UHGV virus genome: UHGV-0036034
From: a virus
Strand: one strand, 5' to 3'
DNA: 26,061 bases
Of this stretch, positions 2,084 to 25,119 are shown piece after piece. The notes beneath the pieces are model-generated. The model saw nothing but the letters and a program-made list of their open reading frames with translations. It was not told the DNA's origin and searched no databases. Position 1 is the stretch's first letter. Every line of letters starts with the position of its first letter. The position numbers were made by a program, and so were the translations under genes.

Positions 2084-4486
2084 TCACGCCCATGTCGCAT
2101 CTATGTAGAACGTTGGAGATGTAGTGGTGGACCCTTCAATCGATATTTGTCCTGTTGAAGCATTAATGGTGGCCATTGCCATGCCAAATGAAACGCCATC
2201 ATCAGTGAACGGTACAGGGACATTTTTGGTTACTTTTGGTCTGCACCACCTCGGAAGCGTTAGAACAGTATTGCCATTCGCAAATGAAGTGGCTGCCAGT
2301 TTAATATTAATTGAATTGGCAGTTAAACTTGACGGTGCCTGTACTGTTACGTTTGTTCCAGCCCACCATTGAACAGCTGCTCTTGGCGTGTAATCAACAC
2401 GCGACCACCAGTCGATAATGGCAGAGCAGATAATTTCCGCATACAGACGATACCCTAACTGGCTTTGGTGAATGTCATCACGCAGAAGTGGGTCGTATTG
2501 CGTGTTGAAATACTCTGGATATGGGGCCGGGAGCTGGTGAGTTGTTGTTACACAAATGACGTTATTGCCATATTTCATCATCTGGCGTTTACCAGCCTCG
2601 CGTAACTCCGCAACACCATCGTAATTTGCTGATGGCTGACCAGCCCCTCCAATAAATGACTGGCTATACCACATCCACGGCTCAACCCAAACAGGTACAC
2701 GCCCGAGACTGTTGCAATATAAGACAAACTCATCTATCAGTGCCGCCATATAATCGCCGTTTTGGTTTCCCTGCCCTTCGTTAGTTCCGGCAACCATAAT
2801 AACGATGTAAGCATCACCCGGCCCCTGAGCCTTCAGGAGATCTAACTGTTGCCTCATTGTCTGTCCGGCAACCGCCTTGTTTACAATGCTATATGAACGG
2901 TGTCCGTTCGCTCCATCCATTAATTGCGGAATGTACGAGCTGAACGCAGAAATGAAATCCTCAGCTGTACTATCACCGTGGATAAGGATATTAAGTGGAG
3001 GCTTACAGTGCACACCATTATCAGAGGTATAGCTAGTCACGCCAGTTACTCGTACAATCGTATTGGGAGCACTACTATTAGCTACAAATCCTACCTCGTA
3101 AACGTCACCTACCGCCGAAGTATCATATGGCAGTCTAAAGCTAACACCATTCATTGTAATTACAGCCCAGTTCTTTGACTGTAATGCCACCCCAATAGTA
3201 GCCTTACCGGGAGCGTAGGACAGCAACCCTCCAGGAAGTGAGAATGGAGAACCGTTTACTACCGCGCCTCCAATTGCTTTCTGCCGTACATCCCATTGTG
3301 GAGCACCAGGAGCGCCGTAGAACATCACCCATCCACCTGAGCACCGTAACACAATACCCACTTCATTAAGAGTATTAGACTCAGCACGAATATGTCCTGA
3401 CACATGCTCACCTACTGCAATGGGTACGAACAATCCACGGGTAACAGAATCGGGTAGAGCAAATAGGGCTGCCGTTTCGGAGCTAGCGAATAATGGACCC
3501 TGAGGCGTAAATGAATCCCCGTCCACTGCATAGACAACACAATCAGACCATTCCACTCGCTTCATGCGAATAGGGTTTCGGTTGAGGATGGCCTGCTTAG
3601 CCAGATAATCCACTTCTCCACCGGTTGTTGTGAAATTAAGATGGGAAAACTCAAAAGTGCATTCACCTTCAAACTTCAGCGACTTATAAAGCGAGTAAAG
3701 ATCGCTGTCGAATTTAAGAATGACGTTTTTATCAACGATTACACGGGAGTTTTGCAGATTTCCTGCCTGTGAGGCCGTTCCTGGTATTGTATAAGTTTTC
3801 TTTGTTGCAGAGTGGCAAGGGAAATAAACATAGCCATAGAGATTTACACTCTCCACCCATGCTGCAACAACGTTTGATTGATTGTAAGATGGCATAACGG
3901 TGATTGGTATCGGCTCAAATTTATCCACACCACCGATCTTTTTCCATCCGTCAGGCTGAGCAAGAAGAATCAGCACTTCACTGGCAGAAGCACTCGGAGG
4001 GAGAATGGCTATAGGCTGCCCACTGTCATCCCAGCCAAAAATCATATTCCGGCGACTTGATACCTTTGGCACCAGGTTTACACTGTTTTCAGGAACCCTA
4101 AGCGTATTTCTCTGAAGAGCACCGATGTTGAACATCGCATGCTGAATAAGCATGGTCAGGTAGTCGAATGCATCCTCATGGACCTCTGCAAAAAATTTCC
4201 CCTGATTTCTTAAATCAGTTTCCTGCACTGCTGGAAGGTTACGAGTGATTGATATTGTAATGCCTGGCAAAACAGGAGATGACGTAATAACGCTTCCACC
4301 GGAAGATAAGCCAGCACCTGTAACCATGTAATCTGTCCCCAGGCTCATTGGAGAAACAAGACCGTCAGCGGTTATTGTGCTTACATCAAGATCTGTGTCT
4401 TTAAAAATTCTGAAAGTATATGGGAATGATGTCGTGACTCCATTCCCGAGATACTCATTGTGGCTGATTTCGGTTGAGACTGTCAT
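2084..4486 (-). CDS. Tailspike with podovirus-type N-terminal tail-attachment domain and C-terminal SGNH/GDSL esterase domain
   Basis: 800-aa ORF with GGAG RBS 8 nt before the ATG. The N-terminus (MTVSTEISHNEYLGNGVTTSFPYTFRIF) matches the conserved pattern of T7 gp17-like tail-fibre/tailspike N-termini. The C-terminal part carries the SGNH blocks in order: GDS (NILIHGDSTAEDF, Ser about 506), GTNE (about 567-570), DxxH (DDIH, about 670-673). Confidence 0.85.
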   Translation of the reverse strand: MTVSTEISHNEYLGNGVTTSFPYTFRIFKDTDLDVSTITADGLVSPMSLGTDYMVTGAGLSSGGSVITSSPVLPGITISITRNLPAVQETDLRNQGKFFAEVHEDAFDYLTMLIQHAMFNIGALQRNTLRVPENSVNLVPKVSSRRNMIFGWDDSGQPIAILPPSASASEVLILLAQPDGWKKIGGVDKFEPIPITVMPSYNQSNVVAAWVESVNLYGYVYFPCHSATKKTYTIPGTASQAGNLQNSRVIVDKNVILKFDSDLYSLYKSLKFEGECTFEFSHLNFTTTGGEVDYLAKQAILNRNPIRMKRVEWSDCVVYAVDGDSFTPQGPLFASSETAALFALPDSVTRGLFVPIAVGEHVSGHIRAESNTLNEVGIVLRCSGGWVMFYGAPGAPQWDVRQKAIGGAVVNGSPFSLPGGLLSYAPGKATIGVALQSKNWAVITMNGVSFRLPYDTSAVGDVYEVGFVANSSAPNTIVRVTGVTSYTSDNGVHCKPPLNILIHGDSTAEDFISAFSSYIPQLMDGANGHRSYSIVNKAVAGQTMRQQLDLLKAQGPGDAYIVIMVAGTNEGQGNQNGDYMAALIDEFVLYCNSLGRVPVWVEPWMWYSQSFIGGAGQPSANYDGVAELREAGKRQMMKYGNNVICVTTTHQLPAPYPEYFNTQYDPLLRDDIHQSQLGYRLYAEIICSAIIDWWSRVDYTPRAAVQWWAGTNVTVQAPSSLTANSINIKLAATSFANGNTVLTLPRWCRPKVTKNVPVPFTDDGVSFGMAMATINASTGQISIEGSTTTSPTFYIDATWA

Positions 4487-4563
4487 GTTAATTCTCCAGA
4501 TAGTCGCAGCACCCGTTGCGCCGCATATCCGGTTATTCTATTACCCGAAAAACCACATATGGA

Positions 4564-4605
4564 TAGACAACCCATAAATACGAACAGATATTACCTTTCA
4601 GGTGA
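4564..4605 (+). promoter_or_regulatory. Promoter-like element with 15-bp inverted-repeat site (copy A)
   Basis: -35-like TAGACA (4564-4569), 17-bp spacer, -10-like GATATT (4587-4592), then TTACCTTTCAGGTGA (4591-4605). Sits about 90 nt upstream of the 86-aa plus-strand gene. Confidence 0.4.
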
Positions 4606-4623
4606 TTCGCAAAACGTGCTGGA

Positions 4624-4644
4624 TAGCAAACAAATTATTTGCTA
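4624..4644. promoter_or_regulatory. Inverted repeat TAGCAAA-N7-TTTGCTA in the leader of the 86-aa gene
   Basis: Read directly. It is the second copy of a TGGATAG(A/-)CAA direct repeat (4560-4570 and 4620-4630) and is followed by an AT-rich TATAAATATA stretch. Confidence 0.3.
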
Positions 4645-4681
4645 CTGTATAAATATACAGTTATTGCATGGAGAAGATAAG

Positions 4682-4939
4682 ATGCAGCAGTATCACTATC
4701 CACTGGAAGACGGATTTACCGAAAGGATTCACACGCCGGGAGGCGTCAGGTCACTGGTGGAGGGATCGCACTTGATGAAATTACTCCGGGATCTCGATAA
4801 GGATGGATTTAATGTCGATGGCCCACTTGCCGAACTGACTGCACTGATTAACTACGTCACCAGCTCGCAGATGTCTATGCAGGATCTGCAAACACATCTC
4901 GACTATTGTGCCGAACAATTACGAAAACAAACCAGATAA
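4682..4939 (+). CDS. Hypothetical protein (86 aa), plus-strand cargo gene
   Basis: ATG at 4682 preceded by GGAG at an 8-nt spacing. Opposite orientation to the structural operon. Protein MQQYHYPLEDGFTERIHTPGGVRSLVEG... has no recognisable motif. The track start at 4559 has no RBS. Confidence 0.55.
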   Translation: MQQYHYPLEDGFTERIHTPGGVRSLVEGSHLMKLLRDLDKDGFNVDGPLAELTALINYVTSSQMSMQDLQTHLDYCAEQLRKQTR

Positions 4940-4942
4940 GGT

Positions 4943-4985
4943 TTGAAATTACCAAATGGAGTGCTTATATTTACCTTTGCGGTAA
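4943..4985 (+). promoter_or_regulatory. Promoter-like element with 15-bp inverted-repeat site (copy A')
   Basis: -35 TTGAAA (4943-4948), 17-bp spacer, -10 TATATT (4966-4971), then TTACCTTTGCGGTAA (4971-4985). The same inverted repeat could instead fold as a weak terminator hairpin for the 86-aa gene. Confidence 0.4.
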
Positions 4986-5126
4986 ATTTACATCGCACTC
5001 CTCTTGTGCCATAGTAATCGGGCACTGGCAAAATCCAGTGCTGGGATTGGTCTCCCGGATTACTACAGAGTTAGTGCTACACTCATTGACGCCACATTGA
5101 GGTGGCTTATAGATGGAAATTTCACA

Positions 5127-5288
5127 ATGAAAAAAGCATTTGCTGCACTGTTCGTTTTGTTGTCTCTGGTAGCTTCAACTCAGGCCTTTGCCGGTCGTTG
5201 TCAGCACGACAGCGACACTGCTGCTGACGGCTCCCGCTGCGGTGGGCGTTCTGCGGATTCCCGCCCTGGCGGCGGTGGCATTCGTTAA
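5127..5288 (+). CDS. Signal-peptide microprotein (53 aa)
   Basis: MKKAFAALFVLLSLVASTQAFA-GRCQHDSDTAADGSRCGGRSADSRPGGGGIR: textbook Sec signal (basic n-region, hydrophobic core, AFA-G cleavage motif) and a roughly 31-aa Gly/Arg/Asp-rich mature part with two Cys. No obvious RBS; possible upstream promoter TTGACG (5086-5091). Confidence 0.4.
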   Translation: MKKAFAALFVLLSLVASTQAFAGRCQHDSDTAADGSRCGGRSADSRPGGGGIR

Positions 5289-5310
5289 AAACAAGGCCGC
5301 GAAAGCGGCC
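5285..5310 (-). terminator. Intrinsic terminator of the minus-strand ejection/membrane-protein operon (convergent with the plus-strand cargo)
   Basis: GGCCGC-GAAA-GCGGCC hairpin (5295-5310), followed on the minus strand by TTGTTTTT. Lies directly after the stop of the 98-aa membrane protein gene. Confidence 0.55.
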
Positions 5311-5311
5311 T

Positions 5312-5323
5312 GTGACATGTCAC
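5312..5323. repeat. 12-bp perfect palindrome GTGACATGTCAC, copy 1
   Basis: Exact 12-mer. It overlaps the TGA stop of the membrane-protein gene 5320..5616 and abuts the terminator hairpin. Confidence 0.9.
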
Positions 5324-5616
5324 GTTCCTTTTCTGAATGATAGCCGTTCGAAAAATGATGACATTCCACCGCAGACAATAGCAAAGATGATCCCACCAAA
5401 GAAGAGAAGGCCAGCCTGCCACCACTCCCACCGCCATACATCCACAGCACCAACCATACCAACAATCGCTCCAACAAATGGAATATAGCTCACGATGAAA
5501 GCAATGGGGGCTGCAATTATCCAGTGCAATCCCCACCATGATTCAAGCCCAGCCATAATTGCTGCCAACTGAAAAAGACCAACGACGATATAAACAATGA
5601 ATCCTATAGCTTGCAT
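5320..5616 (-). CDS. Small Trp-rich integral membrane protein (98 aa, about 3 TM)
   Basis: AGGTGA RBS 6-11 nt upstream of the ATG. Three long hydrophobic segments (IGFIVYIVVGLFQLAAIMAGL, IIAAPIAFIVSYIPFVGAIVGMVGAV, LLFFGGIIFAIVCGGM). Last gene of the minus-strand operon before the terminator. Confidence 0.7.
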   Translation of the reverse strand: MQAIGFIVYIVVGLFQLAAIMAGLESWWGLHWIIAAPIAFIVSYIPFVGAIVGMVGAVDVWRWEWWQAGLLFFGGIIFAIVCGGMSSFFERLSFRKGT

Positions 5617-5628
5617 GTAGTCACCTAT

Positions 5629-5802
5629 TTACCCAGTAAAAATCAGAGGCCTCCCCTCAATAAGGCTTGCAACAAGAACTATTCCCTGCACAACAAAGAT
5701 GAACCAGCAAATAGCTTGAGTCTGAGGGTTAAGAAAATATTTGTAGCGGTCAATAAATAACAACCCACCAGAAATTATCACACTCAAAATAATTAAAAAC
5801 AC
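5629..5802 (-). CDS. Candidate small 2-TM membrane peptide (about 57 aa, GTG start), below the 60-aa track cutoff
   Basis: Open frame immediately after the TAA of the 824-aa gene. AAGGAAG RBS overlaps that stop, then GTG about 4 nt downstream. Translation V/MFLIILSVIISGGLLFIDRYKYFLNPQTQAICWFIFVVQGIVLVASLIEGRPLIFTG. Its stop overlaps the RBS of the next gene. Confidence 0.35.
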   Translation of the reverse strand: MFLIILSVIISGGLLFIDRYKYFLNPQTQAICWFIFVVQGIVLVASLIEGRPLIFTG

Positions 5803-5811
5803 AACACTTCC

Positions 5812-8286
5812 TTATTGCGGAGTGACATCCTGAGGTCGCCACCAGTATGTCTGATTAAACTCTTTCTTCGAACGTTGCTCCATTTTACGCAAATAGCCTG
5901 GTGAAAAATACTCCTGCATCTGGTTAAAGATCATATGATCGAGAGCCGCCTTTAAGTACCAGAGATTCGCACCGGGCATCAAACCTTTCCCCAGCTTCAC
6001 CAGATCACCACCAGTCTGCTCACTCTTCCCTTCCACAGCATTTAACGGTATGCCCTGAGCAATCTTCACTACGTCATCAACCAGACCAGCTACCGGGCCA
6101 AGCATCGACGCCAGCGCGCCGCTTCCGTACCTAGTGTGATCTGACAATAAAAAGTCACCGTAAAGGCCAAGGCCACCACCTTTCAGTAGAGCACCAAGCC
6201 AGAATTTTGCGGCACCTTCTCCTGTCATCTCTCGAGGATTACGACCAGACGCAAGGTCGTTAAGTTGCTGCGACAAAGCGCCAAGAATGGTCGTACTGGC
6301 AATAAACGTCGCAATATATGCCGCACGCCCACCAGCAGACGGCATACCCATAGCGCGTGACCAGTGACGCATAACAACCGAGATAGGGAACGATTTAAAC
6401 AGGAAAACACTTCTCGTTAATTCACCTTTCCATGTTCCACGCTGAATACCAGAACCGGTTATCAGTTGCTCACGAGCTCCCGGTGTAATAACAGCCATAT
6501 CAACTTCTTCAGTTACGGCACCGAGCAATTTACGCATTGCCTCAAATTTCACGCGCTCAGGCTCACCAAGATGTTTAACTGCTGAATCAGGGATACGCAT
6601 AATGCTTTCCGGTGTCAGCATCGTATTATTACCGTTCCCCCAGTCCTCCTGTTGCGCCAGCTTCCATACGCTCCAGTCTGTGTCAGTAATCCCTTTGCTT
6701 TTCAGGATACGAAAATCAGAGTCATCGAGGCTACGAAGGTCTGGTGTCCGTGACACTACTTCTCCCAGGCTTCCCATCATGGTTACGCCATAGGCGCGCT
6801 TGTGCGCATCTGACCATGCTGTAAGCCCACTGGCACGCATTACCGCCGTTGCCGCCCAACGAGACACTGACGGCCCCATATTATCCATCGCCCAGCGGTT
6901 AACGCTGCCAAGTAGAGATTCCATCGCCAGACCAGCGCGGCGCGCCCGCGCAAGTTCTGTACGGTTCGTTGGGTCCATAGCTTCAAGCTGGTTGCGGAAT
7001 AACTGGTTCATTGGAAGGTTGGTAACCTTCGCAGACAGATACATGGTTCCAAGATCAGAGAACGATGACAGCAACGCGGATCCGAGTCTGCTGGCAACCA
7101 GCCAGTTGCGGATATTGTCAGACCATCGCGCGATGTGCGGATTCGCTACAGGCTGTGTCTTTCCGGAAATAAAGTTGTACAGATTCTCTGTGTTGTTCGC
7201 CAGCCGCTCGACTTTACCGGTTTTACTCGGGTTAGCTGTTGCCGTTTCTGCCTTCACCTGATCAAGAAGAGAGCGGAAAACATGATCGGGGTTTGGGCCA
7301 TATGTTTCCACCAGTGCAATATCTTTACTGATACCTTCCAGGTGACCGACCATGATTTCCCATAGAGAGCGATCACCATAAAGTTGTTGATATTGGAGAT
7401 AGGAATCTGCATCTTTGAAATGTATCTGTCGTGATGCATTACCACGGTTAGCACGTGCGCCGGAAATTCGCATTCCGGTATCAGTAAGCTTATTCAGCCC
7501 ACCAGTAGCGATCGTGTTATAAGCCTCTCCAAGAAATGCAGACAACTCGGCATCGTTCATCAGTTGTCCATCGGCTCGGGTATAATATTTGCGATCCAGC
7601 TTACCTATAACATCGCCAACCCACTTATCCTTTGATACCGCCCCAACCTTTTCCATAGAATGATGTTGAGGGATCCCCCAGTTTTCGAGATAGCCAATGT
7701 CCCCACCAGCATCATTAAACCGGCGGCGCAGCAGCTCTGTAACTTCTCTCCACGCCTTAGCACCTTTTCTTGCTTTAGCATTGCCAGTATTTTGCCCCCG
7801 CATTTCATATACCAGGTCACGTACGCCCGCTTCATCTTCAAACAGACCAAAAAAGCGAGGATCAACTGCTTCGAATGCCTCCTGCAATTGACTCAATGCA
7901 TAATCACGGGTGGCTTTTGTTCTGGATTCAACAGAGAGGAAATTAGATTTACCGTCTGCATTAAAAGCTATAGTACGGTTAAGAGCGCCAAGTTTCCCAT
8001 CAGCCCCTTGATAGCTATTGATAAATTTATCCAATCTCTGACGCGCGGCTATAGTGAGAGCCACACGACGTTTCTTTAATGCCGCTTCTCGCTGTAATTC
8101 TTCAGATGCCAATTGTGCTGCTCGATATAGCCGCTCTGATTCGGAAAGTTGTCGCCACGACATCGGATCATCACGAGCAATGGAGCGCATATTTCGATAA
8201 ATGCGGTCTTCAATGTTCTGTATTTCTCGCGCCGTTAACGTGCGCTGCGCCGCCTGCTGGACCGCTTGTATACATTCCTGTCTCAT
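5812..8286 (-). CDS. Large internal virion / ejection-type protein (824 aa)
   Basis: GAGG RBS. Third of three large genes between the tail tube genes and the tailspike, the position held by internal core/ejection proteins in short-tailed phages. No catalytic motif recognised. Confidence 0.6.
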   Translation of the reverse strand: MRQECIQAVQQAAQRTLTAREIQNIEDRIYRNMRSIARDDPMSWRQLSESERLYRAAQLASEELQREAALKKRRVALTIAARQRLDKFINSYQGADGKLGALNRTIAFNADGKSNFLSVESRTKATRDYALSQLQEAFEAVDPRFFGLFEDEAGVRDLVYEMRGQNTGNAKARKGAKAWREVTELLRRRFNDAGGDIGYLENWGIPQHHSMEKVGAVSKDKWVGDVIGKLDRKYYTRADGQLMNDAELSAFLGEAYNTIATGGLNKLTDTGMRISGARANRGNASRQIHFKDADSYLQYQQLYGDRSLWEIMVGHLEGISKDIALVETYGPNPDHVFRSLLDQVKAETATANPSKTGKVERLANNTENLYNFISGKTQPVANPHIARWSDNIRNWLVASRLGSALLSSFSDLGTMYLSAKVTNLPMNQLFRNQLEAMDPTNRTELARARRAGLAMESLLGSVNRWAMDNMGPSVSRWAATAVMRASGLTAWSDAHKRAYGVTMMGSLGEVVSRTPDLRSLDDSDFRILKSKGITDTDWSVWKLAQQEDWGNGNNTMLTPESIMRIPDSAVKHLGEPERVKFEAMRKLLGAVTEEVDMAVITPGAREQLITGSGIQRGTWKGELTRSVFLFKSFPISVVMRHWSRAMGMPSAGGRAAYIATFIASTTILGALSQQLNDLASGRNPREMTGEGAAKFWLGALLKGGGLGLYGDFLLSDHTRYGSGALASMLGPVAGLVDDVVKIAQGIPLNAVEGKSEQTGGDLVKLGKGLMPGANLWYLKAALDHMIFNQMQEYFSPGYLRKMEQRSKKEFNQTYWWRPQDVTPQ

Positions 8287-19600: not shown

Positions 19601-21570
19601 TCCTGTTCACTGGCCTCTTTGGCCATCTTCAAATACTGTTCAGGGCAATGAGCCATAACGCGCTGAAACAGTTCCAGCGCCAGATTGCGTTGCCCCTCAT
19701 TAAATGCCATTGCCATAGCGTCCATCGGTGAGATAGCGGAAAACACACGGCCTTTCTCCAGCACCGACCAGACAACGCGACGCCCCTGTTCACTGCTCAT
19801 GACAAAGCGAATGTCATCAATTTCACGCTTCGCCATGTCACGTTGCTTACGGGCGTTTTCTTCTTTCAGTTGATCGTCTTCGTAATCTGTCATTGTGATT
19901 GCCCCCCCCTGACCACTAACTGCATTCGCCATAGCTGACAAAACACTCGGATCCGAAGTTTTAGCTTCGCTTAGCGTCTTGGCACCCTGTGCCGCCGCCA
20001 TCCCCATCGCCATCATTTGTTGCTGCTGTTGCTGCTGTGCCCGTTGCTGGCGAGCCTGCTCAACCTGTTCCTGCGGAACAATAACGGTTGGAGACACTCC
20101 GGACATATCAGCGAATGCATCGATCGCCTGATCAACGTTGAGTTTGTCGAGAGCTTCTGGTTTCGCTTGCGCAAGTTGACCAATGAAGTTAACCGTGGAC
20201 GCCAGACTGGACAGGCCGATAGACTTCTGCGCCTGAGCCATGACGGAAATGTATTCGACCTTCAGGGGCATGCCTTCCATCGCGTCAGGCGGTGGCGGCA
20301 GCATGTTTTTACGCACCATCATCGAGAAAGCGCGGTCAATGAGAGGATTAAGACATTCGTCGTTCAGACGCTCCAGAACCGGCCCCAACATCAGAAGTTT
20401 TTCTTCTTTCATTTCGATCACCGCTTCAACAGGCATCGAGCGGGTATTGATGTTCTGCAACATCATGAACAGATCGACAAAGTAGGCGCTGTTAATGATT
20501 TGACGAGTGTCCTGAATGTCTGCCACCAAATCTGCTGTACTGGGGTTAACCAGATAAGCAGGCCTGAAGCCATCCTGACCAGTAATCTGATCGATATACG
20601 TGATGTCGCCAGGAAGAAGGGAGGCTCGCTGATTCTTGAGGGAAGTCGGAGCAACCATCGGCGGATTGGTGGCTTTATCAATCAACTGCGACTTGCGCTT
20701 CTGGAGAAGCTGCAATGCCTTAACAGGTCCAAGAGCCAGCATACCCGGGCATGATGATCCATAAACATCTTCGCCGTTAACTTCCCAGCGCGGAGCCATA
20801 ATTGGAAACTCATCGAATCCGGACTCACGCAACAACTTGTCGTTATCGCCACCAACCTCGTAATAAACCGATTTGAATGGCTTGTTCTTGCTATCCAGCT
20901 TCGATGTATCGCGGTCAATGTTCGGGTAAACCGAGTGCATCACTTCAATCCACTTCTCGTAGGTGCCGCTTTCCCACATGCTTTTTACGTATTCGCTGAC
21001 GTTATTTAGCCCGAACTCCTGAACAAGCTGACGAACAGTCATAGAGAACTTGCGAAAACAGGTGTCCACACTGCCACGAGGTGAGTTAGCCAGGTAGTAA
21101 CTGCCTATCGGGAATGGCATTGTGCGAATAATGTCCTCGTCATCCTCCAGCACCGCCATTGCACCAGTGCTGTATGTTCCGAGGCTTCCGTATAACTGCG
21201 GCAGCGACTGATAGAGATTCGACTTATTGAACATATCGTTCATGCGGTTCTGCACCGCCTCAAGCCACAACTTAACAGGGCCATAATCCATCATTTCAGG
21301 ATCTGGCGTAGCCAGACGAAACCACGGACGCGCGGGGCTTGTGATGCCTGACATCATGCCGCTGGCGAGAGTGCGCGCCGCCATAGTCCCGGTCGAATCA
21401 ATAATGCGTGTATTCCGTCGATCGTTACGATTGACCTCAGAAGTCAGAAAGCGGGAACCACGCGGGTTGATGTAATCACTCAACTCGCGCCAGTGCGGCT
21501 CGAACGACTGACGCTCGCTTTCAAGTTGTGCGAACTGTTTGTTCAATCGCTCTTTAGTTGTTTCCGCCAT
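19597..21570 (-). CDS. Portal protein
   Basis: 657-aa ORF placed after the terminase and before scaffold and capsid. Size and position typical of a portal. Confidence 0.75.
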   Translation of the reverse strand: MAETTKERLNKQFAQLESERQSFEPHWRELSDYINPRGSRFLTSEVNRNDRRNTRIIDSTGTMAARTLASGMMSGITSPARPWFRLATPDPEMMDYGPVKLWLEAVQNRMNDMFNKSNLYQSLPQLYGSLGTYSTGAMAVLEDDEDIIRTMPFPIGSYYLANSPRGSVDTCFRKFSMTVRQLVQEFGLNNVSEYVKSMWESGTYEKWIEVMHSVYPNIDRDTSKLDSKNKPFKSVYYEVGGDNDKLLRESGFDEFPIMAPRWEVNGEDVYGSSCPGMLALGPVKALQLLQKRKSQLIDKATNPPMVAPTSLKNQRASLLPGDITYIDQITGQDGFRPAYLVNPSTADLVADIQDTRQIINSAYFVDLFMMLQNINTRSMPVEAVIEMKEEKLLMLGPVLERLNDECLNPLIDRAFSMMVRKNMLPPPPDAMEGMPLKVEYISVMAQAQKSIGLSSLASTVNFIGQLAQAKPEALDKLNVDQAIDAFADMSGVSPTVIVPQEQVEQARQQRAQQQQQQQMMAMGMAAAQGAKTLSEAKTSDPSVLSAMANAVSGQGGAITMTDYEDDQLKEENARKQRDMAKREIDDIRFVMSSEQGRRVVWSVLEKGRVFSAISPMDAMAMAFNEGQRNLALELFQRVMAHCPEQYLKMAKEASEQE

Positions 21571-21584
21571 TTCAATGACTCCGG

Positions 21585-21791
21585 TTACTGACCAAGCAGC
21601 GTTTTACCGCTGGTATTAGCGGTTGATGTGTCGCCCTGAGAACCGGTAAGCAGCGTAGAACTACGACCAGCAGCAGCGCGACGGCGACGTGTTTCTTCGT
21701 CGCGGGCATCAACAACGGCGGCATCCTGCTCCTGTGGTGCTGCCTGAACTTCTGGTGTTGCAGGCACTGATGGTGAGCTACCCATGCACAT
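21585..21791 (-). CDS. Small hypothetical protein (68 aa) upstream of portal
   Basis: ATG with GGAG RBS at an 8-nt spacing. Charged low-complexity protein. The alternative overlapping frame 21572..21811 looks like a shadow ORF. Confidence 0.45.
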   Translation of the reverse strand: MCMGSSPSVPATPEVQAAPQEQDAAVVDARDEETRRRRAAAGRSSTLLTGSQGDTSTANTSGKTLLGQ

Positions 21792-21852
21792 ATCAATGAC
21801 TCCGTACGCAATTAAATTATTACCAATTTAACCACATATGATTTATTTATCG

Positions 21853-21896
21853 TAGACAGTTGACATTTAACGCACGAATTATTACCTTTCAGGTAA
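21853..21896 (+). promoter_or_regulatory. Promoter-like element with 15-bp inverted-repeat site (copy B)
   Basis: TAGACA (21853-21858) and consensus TTGACA (21860-21865), about 17 bp, then TTACCTTTCAGGTAA (21882-21896). Lies in an AT-rich divergent intergenic region. Confidence 0.4.
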
Positions 21897-22218
21897 CCAA
21901 AGAGTTCATTCCGGTTACTAACCTGACTGGCTTGTCGTTAAATTGAACTGGTGGAGTGAGCTTTTATTTTGAGCAGTACGGCGTATGGCACATGCGCCGA
22001 TAGCGGTCTGGATACGTTTAAGGGGCACCCTCCCTTGCTCGGGCAAACGAACCAGGTAGCCGGAATGTGCAAGTCGAGCGGTTTTATTCCGCGCACGGGG
22101 ATTCACCATCCCGGCGATTCGGTGTGACGCCTCGGAAGAGACGAGGGTACAACGATGAGAGCATTTATGGAGCCGCGACAAAGTGTGGTGCCTTAACAGG
22201 CTAAGTGCTCTCAGCGTT

Positions 22219-22295
22219 GTGGCATTAGCTCAGTCGGACAGAGCAACCGCCTTCTAAGCGGTTGGTCGCAGGTTCGAATCCTGCATGCCACGCCA
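22219..22295 (+). tRNA. tRNA-Arg (anticodon UCU), reads AGA
   Basis: 77-nt cloverleaf read directly: acceptor GTGGCAT/ATGCCAC, U8-A9, D stem GCTC/GAGC, anticodon stem ACCGC/GCGGT, loop CTTCTAA (anticodon TCT), 5-nt variable loop, T stem GCAGG/CCTGC with TTCGAAT loop, discriminator G, encoded CCA. Resembles the host argU-type tRNA. Confidence 0.9.
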
Positions 22296-22338: not shown

Positions 22339-22380
22339 GGCGGTGATGGTTTCCCTTGAAGGACTATCACCGCCCTTTTT
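22339..22380 (+). terminator. Intrinsic terminator downstream of the tRNA
   Basis: 9-bp stem GGCGGTGAT / ATCACCGCC followed by CTTTTT. Confidence 0.6.
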
Positions 22381-22458
22381 ACAGCAGGACGCCATTGCGA
22401 TGACTTCATGCTGTAAACCCGTACAGCCACGGAAGGCATAACTCATTGCTTCCAGTTC

Positions 22459-22482
22459 GCCCGGTTCGCCGGGCATTTTTTT
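22459..22482 (+). terminator. Hairpin plus T7 tract immediately upstream of the 22494 gene RBS (terminator or attenuator)
   Basis: GCCCGG-TTCG-CCGGGC followed by ATTTTTTT, then the AAGGTGAG RBS and ATG at 22494. Confidence 0.55.
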
Positions 22483-22493
22483 AAGGTGAGATT

Positions 22494-22850
22494 ATGAACG
22501 ACCAGCAAATCGAAAAAGAAATCGTTGAGAAAGGCAAAACCGCTCCGCGAGTTACGCCTCAATATATCGAAAGCATCATTCTTGAAGAGCATTTCTTTAC
22601 TGCTTATGACGGCATTCGTGCTGCCAATATGGGCGTTGGCGATTCATGGACAGCGCATAAATCTACAGACCTCCTGACTTTCTGCGTACTGGTGCTGAAG
22701 AATGGCTTCACCGTCACCGGAGAAAGCGCCTGTGCAAGCCCGGAAAACTTTGATGCAGAAATTGGTCGGAAGATTGCCCGGCAGAATGCTGTAAACAAAA
22801 TCTGGATGCTCGAAGGTTACTTGCTGAAGCAGAAGCTAAGCGAGCAATAA
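22494..22850 (+). CDS. Small conserved phage protein (118 aa); possibly N4 gp49 / Sf6 gp66-like family (recalled from memory, unverified)
   Basis: Strong RBS AAGGTGAG. Plus-strand gene inside the minus-strand structural block. Protein MNDQQIEKEIVEKGKTAPRVTPQYIESIILEEHFFTA...NGFTVTGESACASPENFDAEIGRKIARQNAVNKIW. The family assignment needs a profile search. Confidence 0.7.
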   Translation: MNDQQIEKEIVEKGKTAPRVTPQYIESIILEEHFFTAYDGIRAANMGVGDSWTAHKSTDLLTFCVLVLKNGFTVTGESACASPENFDAEIGRKIARQNAVNKIWMLEGYLLKQKLSEQ

Positions 22851-22940: not shown

Positions 22941-24416
22941 TTAAGCATAGGGATCGTAATCTGTGATGGCCTTGCCTTGCTGGTTCTGCTGACCGGGAAT
23001 TCGCAGACGCTTCGACACAGGGAACGCAAACGTCAGCAGTAGCGCATCGCCTTTACCAGGAGAACGCCCAAGTCGCTCTTTGATATCTTCCTTCGGTTCG
23101 ATAACGATTTTACCGTCCACTCGAACTTTGTACTCTGCTGCCGACAGGTCGTCCGCTGTTTCCTGGTCATCAAGCATGCCGCCCAGCCTCAGCCATGTCT
23201 TGCATGAGTTGAACATCTCCCCACGCTTGTTGAGCATCTGCGGGTCAGTAGACGCGCCACCGAACTGAACAAGTTGCCATGTACGACCCCAGCCGTCACC
23301 GATTGACTTCAGACCAGTTCCGTAACCGAAGTCGATGAACACTGCGTCAGCCTGGTACTGGTCTTCAAAGTCAGCGATACGCTTCGCCATAATCAGATCG
23401 TCAGTGGTCTTGTTGCCGGTCCACAGCACCTTACTATGCAGCCCCTGCCGCAGGTATATCACAGCGTCATCAACACCGGAGTATGCCGGGTCAACGCCGA
23501 TTATCACCGGAGCATGTGCAACCTGCGCAGCGGTTACCACCCGTTTCATTGCCTCGTCAGTAAGGCCGGTAGGGATAAACTGCAATTCAGATGCATCCGG
23601 GAATATGCCGCGCACACGGATTTTAACGAAGTCGCTGTCTTCCCCGTAGTCATCAACCCATTTCTGCAACTGCTGTTTGTTAGTGCCTTCCACCGTCCGG
23701 CTGTCAATCTGCGCAGTTTTCCAGCGGTGTTTATATTTGCGGAAACATTCGCGAAAACGCCCGGTGTTACGTGTAGGGTTTCCGAACGCCACCCAGATAA
23801 TCTCAGTGTCTTCGTCCGTAAGCGCACCCTCGGCAACTTCCCACACCAGATCCGCAATGTTCGACGCTTCATCAAACACCACGATGATGCGTTTGCGCTC
23901 GTTGTGTAGTCCGGCGAATGCCTCGGTGTTGTGCTCAGACCAGGGGATTGCGTCAGCTCGCCACCGCTTGTCGTGCCCAGGATCATTGCTGTACATCGCG
24001 GTAGCGGTACAGGTAAACCAGTCTTTCGTGATAGCAAGGTTTGACCACTTGATAATTTCCGGCCAGGTCTTCGTTCGTAGCTGGTTGTCGGTGTTGGCGG
24101 TCACCACGACCTTACAATCCTCGCAAGTGGACATGCCCCAGTTGATCAGCATTGAGATGAATGCGGATTTACCAATACCGTGACCAGAAGCACGTGCCAG
24201 CATAAGCGGCTGATAACGCGTCTCTGGATTCTGCAGGTGATCACGTATCTCTCGGAACGCATCGGCCTGCCACTGACGTGGGCCGGTGGCATGTGCCAGT
24301 TCAGTCCCCTCTTCCCCCCACGGGAACGCATAGAGGGCATAGCCAAGCGGATCGTGAGTGAACCCTGCAATATCCTCGATTAACTGCTCTTCAGGAGATA
24401 ACGCTGTATCTGTCAC
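22941..24416 (-). CDS. Terminase large subunit
   Basis: 491-aa ORF with Walker A-like P-loop (ARASGHGIGKS) and Walker B-like IIVVFDEAS in the N-terminal ATPase half, and acidic nuclease-type residues in the C-terminal half. ATGA overlap with the small subunit. Confidence 0.85.
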   Translation of the reverse strand: MTDTALSPEEQLIEDIAGFTHDPLGYALYAFPWGEEGTELAHATGPRQWQADAFREIRDHLQNPETRYQPLMLARASGHGIGKSAFISMLINWGMSTCEDCKVVVTANTDNQLRTKTWPEIIKWSNLAITKDWFTCTATAMYSNDPGHDKRWRADAIPWSEHNTEAFAGLHNERKRIIVVFDEASNIADLVWEVAEGALTDEDTEIIWVAFGNPTRNTGRFRECFRKYKHRWKTAQIDSRTVEGTNKQQLQKWVDDYGEDSDFVKIRVRGIFPDASELQFIPTGLTDEAMKRVVTAAQVAHAPVIIGVDPAYSGVDDAVIYLRQGLHSKVLWTGNKTTDDLIMAKRIADFEDQYQADAVFIDFGYGTGLKSIGDGWGRTWQLVQFGGASTDPQMLNKRGEMFNSCKTWLRLGGMLDDQETADDLSAAEYKVRVDGKIVIEPKEDIKERLGRSPGKGDALLLTFAFPVSKRLRIPGQQNQQGKAITDYDPYA

Positions 24417-25009
24417 TGATTACTATCCTGACGTTCTTTGAGTCGCTTCCTGGCTGCTGCTATGCGATCAGCAATTGTCACATTCACATTAACATCCAGA
24501 CGTTCTTTGAACGCGTTGACATCAACATGCTTACCAATCAGCTCAAGGTTCTTCACCTTGTCAGGCCATTTAATTTTTTTGAGGATTGTCTCTATCGAAT
24601 CCTCGTTCATGTTCATGATGGTCGATGACAGATCAAAGCCACTAAGCGTAGTGCGCCAGATTTTCGGCCACTCGCGGATTGGCTTAAGGCTCCCATCGTC
24701 GTTGAGGATGTCGATCACGTCCATCTGGTCGATCTCCACCAGGCGCATGAGAACGTAATCAGCACTGACGCGCATTCGTTTGTTGCGCTCCTCCATCAAC
24801 TCGGCAATCCGTTTTTGAATGCGTTCATCGCGCATCATGACACTGGCTTTAACTGCCGCTGTATTTGGGGAGAATCCTGCGTTAATCGCTGCCTGAGTCT
24901 GGTTTTCAGGCGTTTTGATGTATGACTGGCAATAAGCCTCCTGCATTGCTGTGAGCGGCTTAAATTGCGTTGATTTGCGTTTATAGGTTTTAGGTTCAGC
25001 AGGCATCAT
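24413..25009 (-). CDS. Terminase small subunit
   Basis: Start taken as ATG 25009 or 25006 (MMPAEPKTYKRK...) with GGTGG upstream, rather than the track's TTG at 25087, because a terminator hairpin and tandem repeats lie in between. Helix-rich basic protein immediately upstream of and overlapping the large subunit. Confidence 0.7.
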   Translation of the reverse strand: MMPAEPKTYKRKSTQFKPLTAMQEAYCQSYIKTPENQTQAAINAGFSPNTAAVKASVMMRDERIQKRIAELMEERNKRMRVSADYVLMRLVEIDQMDVIDILNDDGSLKPIREWPKIWRTTLSGFDLSSTIMNMNEDSIETILKKIKWPDKVKNLELIGKHVDVNAFKERLDVNVNVTIADRIAAARKRLKERQDSNQ

Positions 25010-25016
25010 AACCACC

Positions 25017-25048
25017 GTGGTAATAGTTACCGTTGTGGTAATAGTACC
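25017..25048. repeat. Tandem direct repeat GTGGTAATAGTTACC / GTGGTAATAGTACC in the terminase leader
   Basis: Two copies with an 18-bp period (25017-25031 and 25035-25048). Each contains GGTAA..TTACC half-sites in the opposite arrangement to the 15-bp motif. Confidence 0.6.
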
Positions 25049-25050
25049 AT

Positions 25051-25078
25051 GCAAAATAAAGCCGCCATAGTTGGCGGC
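25051..25078 (-). terminator. Intrinsic terminator separating the upstream small genes from the terminase/structural operon
   Basis: GCCGCC-ATAGTT-GGCGGC hairpin (25061-25078), followed on the minus strand by TTTATTTT. Confidence 0.55.
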
Positions 25079-25119
25079 AGTATTCAAAGTCCATCAAATT
25101 CATCATGCATAATCTACTC

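Follow-up and report, generated by a model that had tools for sequence, protein, structure and literature searches.

The 15-bp inverted repeat found at three promoter-like sites in this prophage DNA is the core of a 17-bp palindrome, ATTACC-N5-GGTAAT, and the 17-mers are most probably operators for Rep, the immunity repressor of the epsilon15/phiV10-like (Uetakevirus) temperate phages. We put the probability of this reading at roughly 85%; Rep binding is inferred, and the database annotation that agrees with it is a prediction in its own right. The operator set belongs to a known repressor family, and orthologous sites are already marked in epsilon15.

The palindrome and its distribution in Uetakevirus genomes

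Sequence matches to the window, a stretch of 26,061 nt, include phiV10, epsilon15-like phages of E. coli and numerous E. coli prophages. Host DNA takes up bases 1 to about 59, and the att core AATCATTCCCACTCAAT, a sequence reported in PMC9782041, follows at 60-76, which makes the window one arm of an integrated phiV10/epsilon15-like (Uetakevirus) prophage of E. coli. Such prophages are widespread, with 563 of 5,426 complete E. coli genomes matching this region. The structural genes are on the minus strand of the window, and the immunity region, including rep, lies outside it in the other arm of the prophage. Two genomes served as stand-ins for this missing region, namely the complete, circular pNADC1036guaAphage (L004, referred to here as the NADC1036 phage), which is 99.9% identical to the window over 4300-5900, and the integrated prophage copy HN257 (L022). 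Six Uetakevirus genomes were compared (phiV10, the NADC1036 phage, SPC32H, Tyrion, BUCT711 and epsilon15), which together represent the host genera Escherichia, Salmonella, Enterobacter and Klebsiella.

The three 15-mers described in the initial annotation are present on the plus strand as TTACCTTTCAGGTGA (4591-4605), TTACCTTTGCGGTAA (4971-4985) and TTACCTTTCAGGTAA (21882-21896). The judgement that their recurrence is far beyond chance is also borne out: the degenerate 15-mer, with up to two mismatches, occurs six times in the window against 0.22 expected, a count that none of 100 shuffles reached. When one mismatch is allowed, TTACC-N5-GGTAA has five matches in the window against 0.46 expected; two of the five, which had been missed, lie at 25009-25023 and 25027-25041, upstream of and adjacent to the terminase small-subunit gene. 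The full symmetric unit is the 17-mer (A)TTACC-nnWnn-GGTAA(T), whose central position is A or T in 98% of 55 sites. All three focal copies fit this palindrome and its central W: ATTACCTTTCAGGTGAT at site 1 (4590-4606), TTTACCTTTGCGGTAAA at site 2 (4970-4986) and ATTACCTTTCAGGTAAC at site 3 (21881-21897).

The enrichment extends to the relatives. Exact copies of TTACC-N5-GGTAA number 8-11 per genome in the six Uetakevirus genomes, against 0.02-0.05 expected, and in an unbiased count of all 5-N(2-9)-5 palindromes this one ranks first in each of the six. With one mismatch allowed, phiV10 has 14 copies (0.78 expected), and SPC32H has 10 copies of the palindrome, including two to three between rep and cro. 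No exact copy was found in a control Pseudomonas phage. When the six phages, which come from four host genera, are aligned, the central five nucleotides and the flanks vary but the operator arms do not.

A motif scan of the complete NADC1036 phage, which had been proposed as a check, returned 13 copies with up to one mismatch, and all 13 fall within the non-coding 8.8% of that genome (a count that takes the shorter terS start, consistent with epsilon15). None of the 13 is in coding sequence, where the motif had been named as an argument against an operator role. Besides the three focal sites, there are two (to three) operators between the cro-like gene and rep, at 31186/31234 and 32030/32078 (NADC1036 phage, HN257), overlapping a predicted cro-side promoter. 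A pair 62 bp apart just 3′ of rep stands on either side of the early-left promoter TTGACA-17-AATTAT, where the junction of -10 and operator is the same as at the focal sites. A single operator lies 5′ of the p42-like gene, another 62-bp pair 5′ of the DUF1064 gene, an 18-bp pair at terS, and one copy adjoins int. The terS pair is the tandem at 25008-25042 of the window, reading ATTACCACAACGGTAAC and ATTACCACGGTGGTTAT on the minus strand and spaced 18 bp centre to centre; on one side of it is the early-right operon's terminator, on the other the probable true start codon of terS. The HN257 prophage has the same 13 sites as the NADC1036 phage and agrees with the window letter for letter in the 15-mers of the three focal sites. 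Spacings of 62 bp and 17-18 bp recur in all six phages. Together, these data indicate that the motif is a shared, predicted protein-binding operator at promoter-like sites rather than a chance repeat, as had been suggested. The narrower proposal of an operator reserved for cargo genes does not stand, the approximately 13 copies being found also in the rep/cro, early-left, replication, DUF1064, terS and int regions.

A second conserved palindrome, AACCATATATGGTT, was seen at the lysis, tail-fibre and gp3-portal promoters, with seven matches in the NADC1036 phage against 1.55 expected.

The three focal sites and their transcription units

The initial annotation placed each 15-mer 17-18 bp downstream of a -35-like hexamer, overlapping the -10 and the start site. 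Sigma-70-like hexamer pairs are indeed present at all three sites, but 17-18 bp is the distance from -35 to -10 and not to the 15-mer. The 15-mer begins at the final one or two bases of the -10-like hexamer. TTACC is separated from the -35 hexamer by 21, 22 and 23 nt at the three sites; counted from the invariant TTGACA, the distance at site 3 is 16 nt. The overlap with the -10 and start site holds at sites 2 and 3. At site 1 the overlapping promoter is not conserved, being absent from epsilon15, Tyrion and BUCT711, and the overlap is therefore secure for the other two sites only.

Site 1 separates the tail-fibre gene, which starts at 4486 on the minus strand, from ant, which starts at 4682 on the plus strand. 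Its arms are invariant in the six-phage alignment and its flanks are variable. The promoter-like pair at this site, TAGACA-17-GATATT (4564-4592), is confined to the E. coli lineage, and no conserved plus-strand promoter was found at the site in epsilon15, Tyrion or BUCT711. The sole promoter-like site in the ant/tail-fibre intergenic region of epsilon15 and BUCT711 is TTCATA-17-TAGAAT, directed toward the tail-fibre gene; in Tyrion the scan found no promoter-like site in this region. At the matching place in the window, a putative promoter block in the tail-fibre direction occupies 4535-4563 on the minus strand (TCCATA at 4563-4558, 17 nt, TAGAAT at 4540-4535). This block contains an operator half-site, GGTAAT (the reverse complement of 4540-4545), together with the element ATATGTGGTT, and its sequence ATTCTATTACC...AACC..ATATG is invariant in the six phages. 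Inspection by eye found no IHF consensus in the AACC element. Site 1 sits at roughly -57 and -69 from the two predicted divergent start sites, those of ant and the tail-fibre gene. It may block a second ant promoter specific to the E. coli lineage, or it may act cooperatively via the Rep tetramer.

The gene following site 1 had been taken for an 86-aa cargo gene whose product might bind the motif. It is ant (4682-4939, plus strand), encoding an 85-aa antirepressor (phrog_450) that matches PDB 5D50 chain E ('Anti-repressor protein') over residues 2-84 in a phmmer search (E 4e-47), and it is therefore not a candidate for the motif-binding protein. A LexA box, TACTGTATAAATATACAGTT (4643-4662), is positioned 20 nt 5′ of ant, and its CTGT-N8-ACAG is invariant in the six phages. 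The window thus has both parts of an SPC32H-type Ant/LexA module, a homologue of 5D50 chain E and a LexA box on its 5′ side. Kim and Ryu reportedly described LexA control of ant in SPC32H in 2013, and the arrangement in the window matches.

Site 2 begins 32 nt past the ant stop codon and abuts a promoter-like pair, TTGAAA (4943-4948)-17-TATATT (4966-4971). Both the operator and a -35/-10 pair next to it persist in phiV10, Tyrion and BUCT711 (TTGACG-16-TAAGAT); the surroundings of site 2 in BUCT711 are otherwise barely alignable. The site was not found in the Salmonella phages, where no gene follows ant, and for this reason it has no counterpart in epsilon15. Looping between sites 1 and 2 was considered and is not favored: their spacing is 380, 383 or 412 bp and is not conserved in phase, and the Salmonella phages are without site 2.

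Transcription from the site 2 promoter is predicted to enter what is probably the remnant of an isrK or C4-a1b1-type antisense-RNA module (5009-5087, plus strand). Its Rfam scores are 42.1 bits for isrK (gathering threshold 50, E 1e-7) and 31.5 bits for c4-a1b1 (gathering threshold 46.7). At the same position phiV10 scores 75.9 bits for isrK and 77.7 bits for C4 (RF01695), followed by a Bro-N antirepressor gene. In P1 and P7, the immI locus consists of Op51, the c4 antisense RNA, icd and ant, with the promoter under a main-repressor operator. phiV10 has the immI layout, with the operator and promoter of site 2, the a1b1/isrK element, the C4 RNA and the antirepressor gene. The window has neither a C4 match nor a Bro-N gene, and since these are missing and the isrK and c4-a1b1 scores are below threshold, its module is best read as a truncated remnant. 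The sole protein-coding gene downstream of site 2 here encodes a 53-aa microprotein (5127-5288, plus strand) with a signal-peptide-like N-terminus, which belongs to phrog_14503 ('membrane associated protein', moron category).

Site 3 is flanked by gp3, which starts at 21791 on the minus strand, and by the plus-strand tRNA-Arg unit. The scan reported the pair TAGACA-18-AATTAT (21853-21882), but this TAGACA was rejected as the -35 because it is not conserved, whereas the TTGAC 7 nt downstream is invariant. TTGACA (21860-21865) is 16 nt 5′ of the TTACC of site 3, and TTGAC and the operator arms are invariant in the six phages. A 17-nt spacer would therefore put the -10 (TACCTT) within the operator. 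This is the best-conserved non-coding block of the region, and conservation ends directly after the operator.

The tRNA-Arg(UCU) gene (22219-22295, plus strand) starts 323 nt 3′ of the operator, which leaves a leader of about 320 nt. The initial annotation treated the tRNA and the 118-aa gene as units served by this site. Site 3 does head the tRNA-Arg unit; a joint unit with the 118-aa gene, a member of the gp49/gp66 family, is doubtful because two terminator-like hairpins (22339-22374 and 22459-22474) lie between the two. A CTGT-N8-ACAG at 22411-22426, which might be read as a LexA box serving the 118-aa gene, is probably not one: its center is GC-rich and it forms a hairpin. AGA accounts for 6.4 per 1000 codons in the phage, roughly three times its average frequency in E. 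coli, so that a tRNA switched on together with the lytic genes makes sense.

Rep as the probable binding protein, and competing explanations

The gene adjoining the densest operator cluster encodes Rep, a 194-aa protein with two helix-turn-helix regions. Rep of the NADC1036 phage is 100% identical to phiV10 p40, and this protein matches PDB 5D50 chain A, the SPC32H repressor (E 4e-42). PMC9638917 and PMC9986798 describe SPC32H Rep as a tetramer on palindromic DNA sites that is released by tetrameric Ant. Furthermore, epsilon15 (AY150271.2; Kropinski et al. 2007) carries the same 17-bp palindrome, ATTACC-N5-GGTAAT, and its GenBank record labels seven 17-mers as protein_bind 'repressor, lysogeny', an annotation that is itself a prediction. 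Among the labeled sites are orthologues of site 1 (19895-19911), site 3 (2931-2947) and the terS site (12-27); orthologous sites in that phage stand 5′ of gp19 (ant)/the tailspike gene, of gp3 and of the replication/RuvC genes, at terS, and 3′ of rep. The two systems differ in their repressors, since epsilon15 gp38 is only 42% identical to the Rep of the E. coli lineage.

The distribution of the palindrome follows the type of Rep. The segment NLVNRW of the Rep N-terminal domain is invariant across Reps that are only 43-44% identical, paralleling the invariant half-site. When one genome was scanned for each species, six more enterobacterial prophages with an (N/T)LVNRW Rep came to light, and in all six the palindrome is top-ranked and the layout around rep is alike. 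Conversely, none of five distant Rep homologues with a different helix carries the palindrome, and no analogous repeated palindrome was found 5′ of their genes. The half-site is identical in every Uetakevirus and enterobacterial prophage with this Rep type; because all relatives use this one half-site, the association is one of presence and absence and not of heteroimmune covariation. As to earlier descriptions of the operators, the ZX5 paper (PMC9782041) only speculates on them, and a full-text literature search, with Kropinski 2007, Kim & Ryu 2013 and Kim 2016 outside its reach, yielded nothing specific.

The most serious competitor of Rep is the 75-aa cro-like protein, which could be the main binder of the palindrome or could share it with Rep as CI and Cro do in lambda. 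It is encoded divergently from rep with an operator cluster in between, it matches a 'transcriptional repressor' PHROG, and the computed evidence separates neither protein from the other. We nevertheless regard this as unlikely: in the epsilon15 record the sites are attributed to the repressor, presence of the motif goes with the Rep recognition helix from locus to locus, and silencing of late, lysis and tRNA units would suit a repressor of lysogeny better than a Cro acting in the lytic phase. Even if both proteins used the sites, their reading as operators would be unchanged.

Considerably less probable is the idea that the repeat is a core-promoter or discriminator element, carried to the three units by duplication of a single promoter cassette and lacking a binding protein of its own. 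Sites 1 and 3 do resemble each other over about 75 bp, a stretch that includes ATTACC-N6-AACCACATATG, and TACCTT could be the -10 at site 3. A three-way version of this upstream similarity (ATTACC-N6-AACCA.ATA.G) was rejected, being solid for sites 1 and 3 and perhaps coincidental at site 2, where it is probably coding-constrained because it overlaps the final ant codons and the stop. Against a cassette, the symmetric arms recur at more than 55 sites with unrelated flanks and in different promoter geometries, and several copies occupy not the -10 but a promoter spacer or a position upstream of a promoter. Tandem copies at fixed distances of 17-18 and 62 bp are, moreover, typical of cooperative protein binding.

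The initial annotation offered as an alternative a recurring short RNA hairpin, which at the 5′ end of plus-strand transcripts might act in stability or processing. Each 15-mer does fold, weakly (-4 to -6 kcal/mol, z -2 to -4), and site 2 is part of a larger inverted repeat, GGAGTGC...GCACTCC (-17.6 kcal/mol); such stability, however, is what any palindrome gives. Compensatory pairing, the mark of a structured RNA, was not found: among one-mismatch variants in the six genomes pairing is kept in 6 of 33, all via G-U, and among two-mismatch sites 3 of 124 are compensated, with no excess and with all three inside coding sequence. The copies occur in divergent regions and in both orientations to transcription, and the predicted starts lie inside the motif, so that only part of the hairpin would be transcribed. 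In phiV10 the center of site 2 is inverted and its arms are unchanged. These observations leave a functional hairpin highly improbable. Equally improbable is the site of a host transcription factor conserved in Enterobacteriaceae, which the identical motif in phages of Escherichia, Salmonella, Enterobacter and Klebsiella might suggest, because the 48.7 kb of E. coli host/ICE DNA contain no exact copy, compared with 8 in 38.7 kb of phage DNA, and the motif is concentrated at phage immunity genes and co-occurs with one Rep type. We know of no E. coli regulator with a TTACC-N5-GGTAA site.

Relation to other repressors and proposed regulation

The proposed Rep binding at dispersed operators has partial parallels in other temperate phages. 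Like lambda OR and OL, the Uetakevirus operators are 17-bp twofold-symmetric sites, with tandem copies between divergent repressor and cro genes that overlap -10 and -35 elements. Lambda operators occupy two regions only, and later genes depend on N and Q antitermination; in contrast, the Uetakevirus operators are also at late (terS), tRNA, int and accessory units. The means of derepression differ as well, since in the literature Uetakevirus Rep is removed by an antirepressor, whereas lambda repressor undergoes RecA-stimulated self-cleavage. P1 C1 is a single repressor with many operators scattered over the genome, and the dispersed layout described here is like that of P1 C1 rather than lambda. 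The P1 operators are asymmetric 17-mers of unrelated sequence, and C1 is unrelated to Rep; by membership, the present set is a Uetakevirus Rep system. The stoperators of mycobacteriophages L5 and Bxb1 are similar in that many repressor sites are spread across the genome. However, stoperators (L5 gp71) are asymmetric, biased in orientation, located inside operons and act by stopping elongation, whereas the sites considered here are symmetric and, in the NADC1036 phage, 13 of 13 are in intergenic control regions.

A close relative is the Rep-Ant-LexA switch of SPC32H (PDB 5D4Z, 5D50), with which the window and its relatives share homologues of Ant and Rep, a LexA box 5′ of ant, and the palindrome. 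To our knowledge, the SPC32H work dealt with the switch proteins and not with dispersed operators at tRNA, terS or ant-distal units. Compared with SPC32H, the E. coli lineage adds a second unit 3′ of ant that is probably also under Rep control.

These comparisons suggest the following model. In a lysogen, Rep, with its two helix-turn-helix regions and its ability to form tetramers, would occupy the approximately 13 dispersed operators and would silence almost every transcription unit directly, beyond the cro-side and early-left promoters. At sites 2 and 3 the operator extends from the end or the inside of the -10 over the predicted start site, and bound Rep would therefore exclude RNA polymerase. 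The unit of the isrK/C4-type RNA and the microprotein, and the tRNA-Arg(UCU) unit, would in this way be kept off. Upon DNA damage, LexA would leave its box 5′ of ant and Ant would be made; Ant would then strip Rep off the DNA, as published for SPC32H, and all operator-controlled units would switch on together.

A stronger version of this model, which we put forward tentatively and consider possible rather than probable, is that Rep acts as a P1-C1-like tetrameric global silencer of every unit through its approximately 13 operators, with the palindrome AACCATATATGGTT as the site of a late regulator. The units shut would then comprise those for packaging and late functions, the lysis-proximal unit, the integrase, the tRNA, and the antisense-RNA/antirepressor unit. 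Operator pairs at 17-18 bp and 62 bp would serve bridging by the tetramer, and single operators such as site 1 would loop or block an upstream activator instead of acting by occlusion. Among the searchable papers on Uetakevirus, neither this global-silencer layout nor the AACCATATATGGTT palindrome seems to have been described.

The gain for the biology of these phages is modest, because sites of this kind are already marked in the epsilon15 record. If Rep binds as we propose, the tRNA-Arg(UCU) unit, the microprotein and the isrK/C4-like RNA would be under repressor control and would serve induction or infection, instead of being morons that the lysogen expresses. The supposed cargo gene of 86 aa becomes an SOS-controlled antirepressor central to the switch, and the 17-mer offers annotators a straightforward and highly specific way to mark control regions and to recognize the immunity type of Uetakevirus prophages.

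Spacing of the operators and the start of terS

Several copies of the 17-bp operator ATTACC-N5-GGTAAT, the inferred binding site of the immunity repressor Rep, are paired at fixed distances. In all six phages (L003–L008), operator pairs are separated by strictly 62–63 bp, centre to centre; in the NADC1036 phage (L004) these pairs lie at 31946/32008 and 28793/28855, and the same pairs are found in phiV10 (L003) and the other four genomes (L005–L008). The full operator preceding the tRNA-Arg unit (site 3, 21881–21897) likewise has a half-site (ATTACC, 21819–21824) at a distance of exactly 62 bp. The operator pairs at rep-cro and at the terminase small-subunit gene terS are spaced by 17–18 bp, again in all six phages. 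These fixed spacings fit a single Rep tetramer holding two operators.

At terS (annotated at 24413–25087 in the window and 41–715 in L003), the first operator is adjoined by an extended -10 element, TGTTACTAT. Immediately after the two operators lies an alternative ATG (25006–25004, minus strand), which would yield a 197-aa protein like terS of epsilon15 and would render both operators intergenic. The start annotated for phiV10 and its RefSeq counterparts is probably too far upstream.

The tRNA-Arg unit and a second recurrent palindrome

Two strong terminator-like hairpins (22339–22374 and 22459–22474) were predicted between the tRNA-Arg gene and the gene for a 118-aa protein of the gp49/gp66 family (22494–22850); because of these hairpins, the two genes may not share one transcription unit. 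A search for a promoter-like site serving the 118-aa gene found none. Of every 1000 codons across the whole L004 genome, 6.4 are AGA and 3.6 are AGG. Both values are several times those usual for E. coli, which is consistent with the presence of a tRNA-Arg(UCU).

A second palindrome, AACCAyATATGGTT, recurs in the window and in L004, with 7 matches in L004 against 1.55 expected. Copies lie at 2032–2045, 4551–4564 and 21830–21843 of the window, and also at 4930–4945; those in L004 include 30830–30843, 28813 and 31989. The copy 5′ of the lysis cassette is a perfect palindrome. Read on the minus strand, the element takes the form ATATnTGGTT-N7-TA..A. at the starts of the lysis, tail-fibre and gp3-portal genes, and this form is kept in the six phages. 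It carries no annotation in epsilon15, and may be a late-promoter element or a site for some regulator.

The attachment site and the immunity region

Within positions 1–76 of the window, the first ~59 bp come from the host and 60–76 form the att core AATCATTCCCACTCAAT; the window thus spans a boundary between prophage and host at the guaA-associated attachment site. Strain HN257 has a copy of the same host flank, but there it is separated from the prophage by an ICE-like island that encodes an integrase of its own.

The operator following the antirepressor gene ant (site 2, 4970–4986) sits in phiV10 within a 41-bp palindrome (L003 20484–20524; arms GGAGTGCTTATATTTACC and GGTAAATATAAGCACTCC) that is imperfect only at its central 5 nt, which are inverted between phiV10 and the window (GCAAA versus TTTGC). 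The window counterpart (4958–5001) retains only the outer arms, GGAGTGC/GCACTCC, with a predicted RNA fold of -17.6 kcal/mol, and the inverted-repeat structure may also serve as the ant terminator. Located 3′ of site 2 is a remnant resembling isrK and C4-a1b1 RNA (5009–5087; scores below the Rfam thresholds). phiV10 encodes complete isrK and C4 antisense RNAs (L001 3595–3793) followed by a Bro-N antirepressor gene, a set resembling immI of P1, as a second immunity module. In the window's prophage this module is truncated and joined to the 53-aa microprotein gene. The 85-aa product of ant itself (4682–4939) is an SPC32H-type antirepressor (match to 5D50_E, the SPC32H Ant chain of PDB 5D50, E 4e-47), and a near-consensus LexA box, TACTGTATAAATATACAGTT, lies immediately 5′ of the gene (4643–4662). 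Together, the LexA box and ant are the SOS trigger of the prophage.
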